Source of the DNA: Escherichia coli
Lineage (GTDB): Bacteria; Pseudomonadota; Gammaproteobacteria; Enterobacterales; Enterobacteriaceae
Assembly (NCBI RefSeq): GCF_044324785.1
Contig: NZ_CP172127.1
DNA: 64,000 nucleotides
Reading direction: 5' to 3' (one strand)
A program made the translations under genes and the position numbers. The first letter of the stretch is position 1. Each line of letters begins with the position of its first letter. Positions 12,739-16,725 of this stretch are shown here, piece after piece. The notes beneath the pieces were generated by a model. That model had not been told where the DNA came from, did not search any database, and saw only the letters and a program-made list of their open reading frames with translations.

Positions 12739-13318
12739 AAACTTCTGGTATTACAGGCCACTCAATATCAGGTGCAGTTGATGTATCAACACGGTTCAGC
12801 AACACCCGATACTTCTTCCAGGCTTCCAGCAACGAGTTTTCTTCCTCCGTTGCGATCTCCAGATCTACAGCATCCTGAAGTGGCGCAATATGCTCACTGG
12901 CTACCTGCATCAGGCTGTTTTTTGTTTCTTCCACCTCCCGGATCCGGAACAGTTTTTCTGCTTCTGCATCTTTCACCCAGGCTGTGCCGTTCCACTTCTG
13001 AAACTCCCCTTCCGGCGATAACCAGGTAACATTTTCCGGTAACGGACCGAGTTCAGAAATAAATAACGCGTCCCCTGACGCTACGTCATAAACCGTTTTA
13101 CCCCGATGATCTTCAACGAGATGCCACGATGCCTCATCACTGTTGAAAACAGCCACGAAGCCTGCCGGAATATCTGGCGGTGCAATATCGGTACTGTTTG
13201 CTGGCAGACCTGTATGAGGCGGAATATATGCATCACCTTCACCAATAAATTCATTAGTTCCGGCCAGCAGATTATAAATTTTTATGGTCCGTGGTTGTTC
13301 ACTCATTCTGAATGCCAT
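12737..13318 (-). CDS. tfa: Tail fiber assembly protein (Tfa)
   Basis: 193-aa ORF directly downstream of the tail fiber gene; typical lambdoid Tfa length and position. Confidence 0.8.
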
Positions 13319-16300
13319 TATGCAAGCCTCACAATATAGTTAAATGCGATGTTTTTGACGGTGTTTTCCGCGTTACCAGCAGCGTTAACGGTGATGGTGT
13401 GTCCATGTGAACCAATTGCAACGGAGTGCGTGTGTGCACCAATACCGACAGTATGTGCATGTGCGCCTGCGCTTGCAGCAGTGCCGGACAGCGAGTGGGT
13501 ATGAGCACCATCTGATGATGTCTTCCCTGCATTACGAGTCTGGCCACTACCGCTTGTTGTGCTCATAATCCCCGCGCTTAGATTTGAAATCGCGGTATAA
13601 CCATTAGGGAAAATGCTCGTGTTCGTGCCACCAAATGCACCGGAACTCTTGTGTTGGTGCGCACCGGCACTATTTGCAGTCCCGCTAATACTATGGGTAT
13701 GCGCCCCGGTGTTATTCGTGGATTTGGTTCCGTAATCAAACGACGATGTGTTTTTCGTCCCCAAATCCGTACTGGATGCGCTGGCGCTGTGGGTGTGCGA
13801 TTTAATGCCGTCCTGTTCCTGAGACAATACGGCCCGACCACTGGCAGGTTTGCCCTTAATCGTCCAGCCACGCATATCAGGGATCACGCCTGACGGATAA
13901 GCGGCTGCAAGTTTCGGGTAAGCAGATTTGTCAAAAGTCTGCCCCTGCATCAGGGCATAACCAGACGGAACGGTATCTGATGGCCACGGGATTGGTGCGC
14001 CGACTGGGTAGCTTTCTGGTGGAAGATTTTTCGAGGTATAAACTTCTGCCCAGTCTTCCTCAAAACCATAACCGTCTCTTGAAGAACGGTAGAACAGACC
14101 ACCATTTCTGTAATGCGCCTTCATCTGCAAGGTCCGGCAACTTCCGACTCCGGTATAGAAGTTAACCAGAATATAGCTGTCGCCAGAGCGGGTGACATTG
14201 TAAGCGCCTGATTCGGCATTCCAGGGAACGCCACCATCCGCATCGGCATATGTATCCGTTGCCCTTCTGGCAAAAGCAGCCACATGCGCGGCGGTTAAAG
14301 TAATATCTTTGGAACCATCAAACTCAACACCAGAAACCAGTCTTGGCGTTTGTAGCTTTGTTGCTGTTAATGCATTACCGTTCAGACTTGCGGACAGTTT
14401 GGTTCCAATAACCAGTTCGCCGGTTGCGTTATCAATAGCAAACGGTCTTAATGTATTCCAGCCACCATAAACATCACCTTGATTGGTAAGCAGCAGGTAA
14501 GTTTTAGCGCCATCATTACGCCATAATGCACCATACTCCCCACCTATCATTCGAATCTGATTACCACCACGCGCTACAATTTCGTCTGTGGCAAAAAGTT
14601 TTTTGCACGACAAGTTATCGTTAACGATTAACGAATGAGACTCATAAAAACCACGCCCACTCTTAAAATCAAGGATAACGTCCGCCGCGATACATTCAGT
14701 CGCTGGATTTGTTGCCCCAAACTTATAGGTCGTATCATTAACAATGAGATCAGCACCAGGTGCGGATATTGACAGGCCATCTTCGATAAACGCAAAAACA
14801 GGGAAAGCAGCGCCATCAACATAGAACACAGAGCGCAAATCATCGCCCTTATTACTCATCATTATTGAGTGGATGGCTCGTTCATTGTTTTGATATTGCC
14901 AGAACATTCCATAAGCATAACGCCCCCTGTAAGTCCAGCCACCAGGCATAACAAATCCGTTAAACTCGCAGTTATTCATCGGATCGCCTGCGGTTCGCGT
15001 TGCCGTGGTGATAATGACCCTTGATGCCAGTTCGCTTACTGAGCCAGCAGAACGCATAACAACAACAGGGTAATATTTTCCAGATGTTGCACCTGCAGGA
15101 GCGTTAACCAGCACATAACGCATACCACGCTTATCAGCAAAGTCTGTTTTACTGACCGCGTTAATGTTGTTCAGGAAGCGTCCCTTATCGGGTATATCAG
15201 CGCCGTTCTGGTCTTTCTGCAGACGTTTCTCTGCATTGTCATAGGCTGATTTTACTGCCTTTGGCGTTGCCGCCAGCGTTTCAGACGTACTGTTGGTCGC
15301 ACTGCTGAGCTGTACTATCCCCTTTTTCGTCGTGCTCGCATCCTCAAGCGCCACGGCGGATGCAATATCCTCTGCCCGTTTTGCCGCTGTCTCGGCGCGC
15401 GTTGCCGCGGATTCCGCCGTACTTTTGCTCTGTGCTGCCGCCGTCGCACTGCCAGCTGCCTCTGTCGCCTTCGTGGATGCTGTCGTGGCGCTGCCCTTCG
15501 CTGCGGACGCTTGTCTGGTCGCCTCATCTTTTGAAGCAGACGCCGATGATGCCGATGACGCCGCCGAACTGGCGGACGATGCGGCAGCCGTTTTTGAGGA
15601 TTCTGCGCTGGTTTCCGACGCTTTCGCGTTCGTCTCGGATGTCTTCGCTGCGGATGCAGACCTCTCTGCTACCGCAGCCTGTTCAGTGGCTTCGCCAGCC
15701 TTCGTTGTGGCTGCTGAGGCGGCCGATGCTGCGCTTTCTGCCGATTTCCCGGCGGTGGTGGCACTGGCTGCGGCCTCCTCCGCTTTGGCTGACGCCTCTC
15801 GGGCTGATGATGCAGCGGTAGTTTCTGAACCTGCCGCAGCTGAGGCGCTCTGTTCCGCTGCCGTTTCAGAAGACCTGGCGTTTGTCTCGGACGTTTTTGC
15901 CGCCTTCGCAGAATTTGCTGCCGCCGTTGCCGAGGAAGCTGCACTACCGGCGCTTGATAATGCGTTCGTTTCTGATGATTTTGCCGCCTCTTTTGAAGCC
16001 GCCGCATCCCTGGCTGAGGTGGTAGCTTCTGACGCCTTTGTGGTCGCGGTGGATGCAGAAGTGGCTGCTAATTGTTGTGACGCTGCCGCATTCGTTTCTG
16101 ACGTTTTCGCCGCACCGGCACTGGTAGCCGCCGCGCTTTTTGAGGACTCTGCAGCGGCAGCACTTTTTGATGCCTCAGAGGCTTTTGCTGATGCCGTTCC
16201 TGCGCTGGAAAAAGCCTCCTGAGCCGACGTCGCGGCCTGTCCGGCTGACGTGCTGGCTGCGCGTGCTGAGTCTGCAGCATCAGTCGCATGGGTTGCCGCC

Positions 16301-16725
16301 TCACGGGCAGATGTGCTGGCATCGCTGGCTGACTTCTTCGCGGCTGCCGTGTTCTGTGCCACTGCGGACGCGTTACGCGCCACCTCTTCCACCATCAGTT
16401 CAAAACGGCGCAGTGCCTCCGGACGGGCATCCTCCTCCGTCATGGCACCGAGAAAATCATTCAGCGTACCGGGTTGAGAATCTTCATACACGGTGATGGT
16501 CCCGGCATGTGACGGCGGGAAGCCTTCCACCAACAGAATAACGCTGTACTGACCGTACTCAACGTCCATGCTGTAACGCCCGGCTTCATCCGGATTTTCT
16601 GAGGCCAGTGTGTTCACCACCACCGTGGTGCTGTTACGTTTTGCTTTCAGCTGGATTGTGCAGTTCTGTACCGGTTTTCCTGTGCCGTCTTTCAGTACAC
16701 CTGAAATCTTTACTGCCATATTCAC
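13318..16725 (-). CDS. stf: Side tail fiber protein (Stf-like) with Ala/Ser/Thr-rich repeat region and C-terminal HxH motifs
   Basis: 1135-aa ORF; N-terminus matches lambda Stf ([26 protein letters not shown]…); long low-complexity region; repeated GAHTHS/GAHQHK/GAHAHT/GSHGHT near C-terminus. Confidence 0.8.

Follow-up and report, generated by a model that had tools for sequence, protein, structure and literature searches.

The minus-strand gene at 13318..16719 of the window (the whole stretch of 64,000 nucleotides of Escherichia coli contig NZ_CP172127.1 that was analysed) is very probably an intact stf, the lambda-type side tail fibre gene of a lambdoid E. coli prophage. Its product is built from known modules, comprising a lambda-type anchor, a long coiled-coil shaft and a T4 gp37-type tip of the predicted iron-binding kind, and in this respect the gene is an ordinary one.

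In the list of open reading frames the frame extends over 13318..16725 and corresponds to 1135 aa if it is read from a GTG at 16725. Translation almost certainly begins with the ATG at 16719 (MAVKISG...), two codons inside this GTG, giving a product of 1133 aa followed by a TAA stop, since a GGGGTGA Shine-Dalgarno sequence lies 5 nt upstream, right after the terminator hairpin of lom, and since both the PGAP annotation of strain A17 and lambda Stf begin at this codon. The gene order is J-lom-stf-tfa, with all four genes on the minus strand, such that stf occupies its lambdoid tail-module position 3' of J (17453-20866) and lom (16784-17383) and immediately 5' of its cognate chaperone gene tfa (12737..13318). 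The latter encodes a tail fibre assembly chaperone of 193 aa (PF02413, E 1.2e-43) that shares 95% identity with lambda Tfa; the TAA of stf and the ATG of tfa overlap in the sequence TAATG.

The prophage that carries these genes is complete and lambdoid; it adjoins tRNA-Arg(tct), being integrated at the argU (DLP12) site. One question then is whether stf might belong to a decaying prophage remnant from which no functional fibre is made, as the K-12 prophage at this same site, DLP12, is defective. Likewise, laboratory lambda carries a frameshifted stf (PMC12617516). Against such decay, the 1133 codons form an unbroken reading frame preceded by a good ribosome-binding site, tfa is both intact and coupled to stf, and a near-identical prophage in strain A17 retains the full lambdoid set of head, tail, lysis and regulatory genes. 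Moreover, the substitutions relative to lambda fall mostly on third codon positions (95 vs 33 and 31 at the other two), and there are viable phages whose stf is 96% identical. We thus regard a remnant as very unlikely, and treat the gene in what follows as an intact side tail fibre gene.

The N-terminal anchor (collar) domain with its linker, aa 1-100 (16420..16719, minus strand), would dock the fibre on the tail tip. It matches PF08400 over profile positions 1-134 of 134 (E 3.1e-71) and the N-terminal domain of Ur-lambda Stf over all 94 residues of the chain in PDB 9e7m (E 6.6e-52), while residues 1-326, which include the anchor, the linker and heptads of the coiled coil, are 84% identical to Ur-lambda Stf, so that the lambda-type N-terminus proposed in an earlier note on this DNA is borne out. 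In the lambda protein, residues 1-91 have been designated gpStfN and residues 92-101 the linker (PMC12617516).

The following proximal shaft, aa ~101-466 (15322..16419, minus strand), consists by autocorrelation and register table of about 50 unbroken heptads with the consensus x-x-A-x-x-S-A. Its composition is extreme: in residues 105-460 Ala accounts for 37%, Ser for 20.5%, Thr for 11.5%, Glu for 8.7% and Lys for 6.2%, these five residues together making up 84% of the region, and the sum of Ala, Ser and Thr is 70-76% in every block of 50 aa between residues 151 and 450. The earlier note had recorded the A/S/T/K/E richness correctly, but the region is a strict heptad coiled coil and not loose low-complexity sequence. 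Identity at a lag of 7 residues is 0.40 against an expected 0.21 (z = 10), with no break of phase over ~350 aa, and the register table places Ala at position 3 in 47 of 54 repeats, Ser at position 6 in 35 of 54 and Ala at position 7 in 35 of 54. An AF2 model of the single chain from single sequence gives residues ~99-503 as one helix (mean pLDDT 66), and the shaft is homologous to residues 102-393 of lambda, the proximal coiled coil. Periodicity, modelled helix and lambda homology thus all place a long alpha-helical coiled coil directly after a short linker. By cryo-EM and cryo-ET the homologous segment of Ur-lambda has been assigned to the proximal coiled coil and the distal part likened to gp37, the proximal rod being rigid in the cryo-ET data (PMC12617516).

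The extreme composition, together with a pLDDT that is only moderate from a single sequence, could in principle be taken to indicate a disordered low-complexity linker, or even an artefact of assembly or sequencing. Both readings are extremely improbable, as the register is kept strictly over some 50 repeats and the homologous rod of Ur-lambda is rigid. At the DNA level, Tandem Repeats Finder reports no tandem array in stf other than one trivial array of 9 nt, and the remaining repeats are imperfect, 20-32 nt long and mostly spaced at multiples of 21 nt; the ideas of 'repeat DNA' and of an assembly artefact were therefore rejected. Of 5426 complete E. coli genomes, 1230 also contain, in one place, 80% or more of the full gene (96.7-99.8% identical among the matches listed), and lambda possesses a homologous region. 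Finally, the length variants differ by whole heptads. Measured between the anchor motifs MVEEVA and GIVQLSSAT, the coil is 358 residues long here and 253 in lambda, a difference of exactly 15 heptads (105 aa); the lengths found among alleles (253, 309, 330, 358, 365 and 463 residues) are all congruent to 1 modulo 7, and 253, 358 and 463 are separated by steps of exactly 15 heptads. The coiled-coil reading of this region is accordingly the one retained.

Within the region encoding the coil lies an antisense open reading frame of 309 aa (15293..16222, plus strand). That it might be a real overlapping gene is suggested by its length, by the 336-aa antisense frame kept open in lambda stf and by the 'hypothetical proteins' annotated under stf in some phage records. 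A comparison of sense and antisense substitutions with lambda does not discriminate between these possibilities, as both frames have their third codon positions at the same nucleotides, and a codon-shuffle null was used instead. When the order of codons in the region is shuffled, the longest antisense open run is 258 +/- 73 aa, and 35% of the shuffles reach at least 300 aa; equally long antisense frames thus arise from codon composition, and the open frame in lambda has the same reason. In composition the putative product (A/V/S/D/F) only mirrors GCN, TCN and GAR codons as read from the other strand, a Pfam search with it returned no family (best E 0.077), and PGAP makes no call at this place in A17. 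A genuine gene here has a negligible probability, and the frame is a by-product of GCN-rich codon composition in a frame that shares the wobble positions of the sense strand. The earlier suggestion that it is spurious consequently stands, but its attribution to repeated DNA does not, because no tandem array is present.

Beyond the coil, aa 467-901 (14017..15321, minus strand) form a mosaic middle shaft, with a match to PF21446 (E 3.6e-27) and to three structures, PDB 8ju3, 5yvq and 4uxe. Segments like Mu gpS are found at aa ~441-521 and 813-907 (8ju3, 5yvq), a domain of the T4 gp34 trimerisation type at aa 663-762 (4uxe), and the stretch at aa ~525-660 has no characterised homologue; the middle shaft also matches phrog_36614, a family of unknown function. 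An AF2 single-sequence model of aa 514-790 was unsuccessful (mean pLDDT 36.5). The two Mu-like segments match Mu S at whole-protein E values of 1e-39 and 2e-28. The whole protein does not class with the tail fibres Mu gpS and P2 gpH (PDB 5yvq, 8ju3): the likeness is limited to two internal modules, and neither the N-terminus nor the receptor-binding tip is like theirs. Since only these two segments match and the tip is of the gp37 type, the relation to Mu gpS is one of shared modules and not of membership.

The C-terminal part, aa 902-1133 (13321..14016, minus strand), is a receptor-binding tip of the T4 gp37 type, made up of a collar (gp37 D10) and a needle (gp37 D11). It aligns with residues 811-1026 of gp37 in PDB 2XGF (E 6.9e-83; 152 of 232 columns, or 66%, identical), the homology running across the collar (85-94% identity, with a PF07484 Collar match at E 6.6e-12) and both strands of the stem (66-72%), and the last 11 residues of the two proteins are identical. 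We have judged the fold of the last ~150-230 residues by this homology, because a solved tip of 66% identity is stronger evidence than modelling one chain of an intertwined trimer would be. Outside this tip the protein is not related to gp37. The settings of the two tips also differ, as gp37 sits on a myovirus baseplate and has gp38/gp57A as chaperone, whereas the present fibre belongs on a siphovirus tail tip and has a lambda-type Tfa.

The final 160 aa contain seven HxH motifs, at His 975/977, 1007/1009, 1021/1023, 1073/1075, 1087/1089, 1096/1098 and 1105/1107 (span 13399..13797, minus strand). The earlier count of six is right for the Gly-prefixed form G-x-H-x-H; the first motif is K-S-H-T-H, and the total is seven, as in gp37. 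Chance is a poor source of such a number, 5000 shuffles of the last 233 aa giving 0.76 motifs on average and never more than 5. Each of the 14 histidines has its counterpart in register in gp37, at H883/885, 915/917, 929/931, 966/968, 980/982, 989/991 and 998/1000, so that the proposed likeness to the metal-binding repeats of T4-type tips is upheld by alignment with gp37. The seven motifs are kept in 105 of 107 close homologues. As the needle of gp37 contains seven coordinated structural iron atoms (PMC6957217), the motifs are predicted to be iron-coordinating here also, forming octahedral Fe2+ sites in the trimer.

The most variable part of this tip is a cassette at aa 1024-1072 (13504..13650, minus strand), situated between the third and the fourth HxH motif. 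Identity among close alleles drops to 0.52-0.59 in the cassette, and alleles that are otherwise almost the same carry at least eight unrelated versions, while the surrounding stem that bears the HxH motifs is highly conserved. The flanks are present in 3643 and 3773 of the 5426 genomes, and the cassette itself in 993 (about 18%). Comparison with the stf alleles of related prophages therefore confirms that the putative specificity region is the most variable one, as had been supposed, but confines the variability to this insert of about 49 aa. The cassette occupies a place homologous to the tip subdomain 932-959 of gp37, which binds LPS and OmpC (PMC6957217). By this analogy it is presumed to be the receptor-contact surface, and its hypervariability would fit such a role.

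One hypothesis on the receptor is that the fibre binds OmpC, in the manner of lambda Stf and T4 gp37, and not some other surface molecule. The collar and stem are homologous to those of two OmpC-binding fibres, and phage mEp332, in which, as in phage ev099, the cassette is 98-100% identical, is listed with E. coli K-12 as its host. However, the insert that would contact the receptor is unrelated in sequence to that of T4 and longer (25% identity; 49 aa against 28 aa) and is also unlike that of lambda, for which reason OmpC binding cannot be assumed; the swapping of cassettes among alleles implies different specificities; and T4 itself also uses LPS (PMC6957217). A literature search under mEp332 for the receptor of the identical cassette found nothing. 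We consider OmpC a possible but somewhat doubtful receptor.

The modules so far described would allow the following course of events. By analogy with lambda and T4, three chains would combine into one fibre, the N-terminal domains (aa 1-91) of which would clip onto the tail tip. After the short linker, a trimeric alpha-helical coiled coil of ~53 nm, with ~50 heptads having an Ala/Ser core, would project the fibre away from the tail and continue into the mosaic, beta-rich middle shaft with its Mu gpS-like and T4 gp34-like modules. The end of the fibre would be formed by the gp37-type collar and needle, in which the three chains may intertwine around seven metal ions, each probably held by six histidines contributed by one HxH motif per chain, and the insert between the third and the fourth motif would form a knob at the distal end, in contact with the host receptor. 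The product of the downstream, translationally coupled tfa would serve as folding chaperone for the tip, as in lambda, and the fibre, again judging from work on lambda and T4, might speed up the reversible adsorption that precedes binding of J to a receptor of its own.

The allele class to which this stf belongs is already known, being annotated in more than 1000 E. coli genomes and in cultured phages. E. coli A17 has a copy of 99.8% identity under the annotation stfR, PGAP applies this label to many genomic copies, and protein homologues are 84-97% identical. Compared by way of the alleles so labelled, the StfR of the K-12 Rac prophage and its alleles (in RefSeq 'prophage tail fiber N-terminal domain-containing protein') are alike in architecture over the full length, differing mainly in the tip cassette, the length of the coiled coil and a middle insert of 44 aa (PF03406 in the longer alleles). 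In the cultured temperate phages ev099 and mEp332 the gene is 96.4% identical in DNA over its whole length, with point differences only, such that the same allele class occurs in free phages. Ur-lambda Stf (774 aa; N-terminal domain in PDB 9e7m/9mgh; PMC12617516) is encoded at the same J-lom-stf-tfa locus and its C-terminal collar and needle are 69% identical, but it has eight HxH motifs against seven here and a different tip cassette, and its hinge and distal shaft are replaced in the present protein by a mosaic of ~440 aa with the Mu gpS-like and gp34-like modules. No evidence contradicting the explanation of the gene as a side tail fibre gene was encountered.

Side fibres of the lambda type that end in iron-binding, gp37-like tips are a textbook case of modular evolution in phages. 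It is conceivable, if on balance rather unlikely, that jointly the cassette sets a specificity other than the OmpC and LPS ones known for lambda Stf and T4 gp37 and the coil is tuned in whole-heptad steps for reach past different O-antigen or capsule layers; if true, the new specificity and the tuning of reach would be new details of a known system and not a system of a new kind. In practical terms, the gene is a further natural Stf variant with which the host range of lambda-based delivery particles could be engineered (as in PMC11338833); its specificity cassette lies between conserved flanks coding for HxH motifs, and these flanks may be usable as recombination or engineering junctions.

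The side tail fibre gene stf is the single long ORF of its region, at 13318..16725 on the minus strand, and would encode 1135 aa if counted from a GTG. The sequence upstream of it, which reads ...gggctttttt gtggggtgaatATGgca, leads from the terminator hairpin of lom through a GGGGTGA ribosome-binding site to an ATG at 16719, from which the protein begins with MAVKISG; this start matches that of lambda Stf as well as the PGAP start of the 99.8% identical gene, annotated stfR, in the E. coli strain A17, which carries a near-identical annotated prophage. With the start placed at this ATG, from which all residues are numbered here, Stf is therefore 1133 aa long. 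Upstream of stf lie J (1137 aa) and the gene for an Ail/Lom protein (PF06316, E 3e-120), and downstream the stop codon TAA overlaps the ATG (TAATG) of tfa, the tail fibre assembly gene, whose Caudo_TAP product (PF02413, E 1.2e-43) shares 95% identity with lambda Tfa.

The lambdoid prophage that corresponds to it in A17 is complete: it carries int, a CI/Cro-like pair, Q, the lysis genes essD/rrrD/rzpD, bor, terminase, head and tail genes and also an nmpC-like porin. Since it adjoins tRNA-Arg on one side and is followed beyond its right end by ompT-envY-nfrAB, its position is that of DLP12, which in K-12 is a defective prophage. Over its first 25 kb the window shows 98.9% identity with A17 (533 genomes have 80% or more of this part), and tRNA-Arg(tct) is found at 57507-57583 as in A17. 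The window apparently contains, at 12737-57583, a complete lambdoid prophage at tRNA-Arg(tct)/argU, the intact counterpart of K-12 DLP12. Just past tfa, between the tail-fibre genes and ompT, three genes on the plus strand (10659-12617) encode two ferritin-like proteins of the YciE/YciF type and one KatN-like manganese catalase; in A17 this block additionally includes a small general stress protein and a SAM-dependent methyltransferase. Its GC content of 38-45% is below that of the adjacent prophage genes, and it resembles cargo for stress resistance carried at the right end of the prophage, or a neighbouring islet.

The lambda-type N-terminus of Stf proposed in the earlier note is borne out by the anchor domain (aa 1-100), which matches PF08400 (E 3.1e-71) and 9e7m (E 6.6e-52), the structure of the N-terminal domain of lambda Stf as determined on the tail of Ur-lambda. 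The succeeding stretch (aa ~101-466) had been described as rich in A/S/T/K/E, in keeping with its composition (37% Ala, 20.5% Ser, 11.5% Thr), but also as low complexity, whereas the heptad register, the AF2 helix and the homology to lambda identify it as a coiled coil. Its self-identity peaks at all multiples of 7 residues, reaching 0.40 at lag 7 where composition alone predicts 0.21 (shuffles 0.208 +/- 0.019, maximum 0.271; z = 10), and one register with the consensus x-x-A-x-x-S-A (Ala 47/54, Ser 35/54, Ala 35/54) is kept for ~50 heptads; together the lag-7 peaks and the single register rule out a loose low-complexity region. The AF2 single-sequence model has residues ~99-503 as one helix (mean pLDDT 66), and lambda Stf 1-326 is 84% identical to the corresponding segment; in Ur-lambda, cryo-EM/ET assigns lambda residues 102-393 to the proximal coiled coil of the trimeric fibre (PMC12617516).

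The span between two conserved anchor sequences, MVEEVA and GIVQLSSAT, comprises 358 residues in the window allele versus 253 in lambda, a gap of exactly 15 heptads, and reaches 463 residues in a database allele of 1238 aa (P0001) by a clean 105-aa duplication, likewise 15 heptads, inside the coiled coil against aa ~224-328 of the window protein. These three lengths suggest unequal crossing-over between recurring heptad blocks. The 358-residue span occurs in 88 of 107 alleles, from which the other main lengths (309, 330, 365 and 463) are offset by whole heptads; in 14 of the 107 the offset is not a multiple of seven. A search of the stf DNA for a tandem array found none, and the repeats in the coiled-coil DNA are only 20-32 nt long and imperfect, most at spacings that are multiples of 21 nt, so that the periodicity is ancient, maintained in the protein, and no artefact of assembly, an alternative raised in the earlier note.

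Wholly within the coiled-coil coding region lies an antisense ORF of 309 aa (15293-16222, plus strand), in the frame that has its third codon positions in common with stf. Its earlier dismissal as spurious holds good: when the sense codons of this region are put in random order, the longest open run on the antisense strand averages 258 +/- 73 aa and is at least 300 aa in 35% of shuffles, a Pfam search of the ORF gave no family match and lambda stf likewise has an open antisense frame, of 336 aa. The ORF arises, however, from the abundance of GCN, TCN and ACN codons and not, as had been supposed, from repeated DNA. Several more ORFs of 70-153 aa, for example 15360-15821 (plus) and 15669-16007 (minus), overlap the coiled-coil region in other frames of both strands (15315-16496); these read the same GC-rich repeats as Arg/Pro/Gln-rich protein and, like the 309-aa ORF, are most likely spurious. 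In some phage records 'hypothetical proteins' are annotated under stf.

The middle shaft (aa 467-901) is a mosaic of modules, including segments matching Mu gpS (8ju3 and 5yvq, whole-protein E 1e-39 and 2e-28) and a domain of the T4 gp34 trimerisation type (PF21446, E 3.6e-27). For aa ~525-660 (about 14740-15145, minus strand) there was no Pfam or PDB match, the sole match being phrog_36614, of unknown function; the AF2 model of the shaft (pLDDT 36.5) is unusable. The tip (aa 902-1133) aligns with the crystal tip of T4 gp37 (residues 811-1026; 2XGF, E 6.9e-83), with identities of 85% and 94% in the N- and C-terminal collars, 72% and 66% in the N- and C-terminal stems and 25% in the tip subdomain. 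Six HxH motifs had been noticed here; to these six, all GxHxH, KSHTH adds a seventh, against 0.76 expected by chance and a maximum of 5 among 5000 shuffles. The 14 histidines pair one-to-one with gp37 H883/885, 915/917, 929/931, 966/968, 980/982, 989/991 and 998/1000, which in gp37 hold seven iron atoms along the needle, residues 932-959 being the LPS/OmpC-binding tip (PMC6957217). On this register, the suggested likeness to the metal-binding repeats of T4 fibre tips appears well founded.

The receptor specificity domain was also expected to be the most variable part, and sequence comparison supports this. In an alignment of 118 sequences (the query and full-length homologues from the top 120 matches), the 19 representatives at <97% identity remain at 0.95-1.00 identity to the query nearly throughout; lower values are confined to residues 1001-1075 (0.52-0.83) and, accompanied by indels, to portions of the coiled coil (0.64-0.90). 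Between HxH 3 and HxH 4, otherwise near-identical proteins carry at least eight mutually unrelated versions of 38-59 aa. Megablast with single segments, counting those of 5426 complete E. coli genomes in which at least 80% of a segment was covered, found the N-terminal domain in 4758, the middle shaft in 1305, the collar and N-stem in 3643 and the C-stem and collar in 3773; the 147-nt tip cassette (aa 1024-1072) was found in 993, every match at least 95% identical, and while sensitivity is somewhat lower for so short a query, a 183-nt flank matches almost four times as many genomes. The cassette thus behaves as though exchanged whole or not at all, between HxH-coding flanks that are conserved, a pattern long described for the 'His boxes' of T-even fibres. 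Its sequence is distinct from those of the T4 and lambda tips; more distant versions (50-56% identity) are present in gp37 of numerous T4-like phages as well as some siphoviruses, and the temperate phages mEp332 and ev099, whose stf is 96.4% identical to that of the window, carry an identical cassette.

At least 80% of stf is found in one place in 1230 genomes, and other full-length matches listed are 96.7-97.2% identical. Many near-identical proteins in NCBI/nr are named 'short-chain fatty acid transporter', and one 'phage portal protein', evidently propagated misannotations of tail fibres. Each Stf module has a described homologue, and the finding is correct and ordinary; the initial interpretation holds with small corrections (seven motifs, a heptad coiled coil, a compositional antisense ORF).

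The domain homologies, gene order, heptad and histidine registers and variability map are direct observations, to which the workings of the fibre are added from studies of lambda and T4. By this analogy three chains would form one fibre, the N-terminal domains docking onto the tail tip and the Ala/Ser-core coiled coil, some 53 nm long if each residue adds 0.1485 nm, projecting the fibre, with seven metal ions stapling the gp37-type needle and Tfa serving as its putative folding chaperone. The distal insert may then touch a surface receptor, and because of this proposed contact reversible adsorption would be faster before J engages its own receptor.
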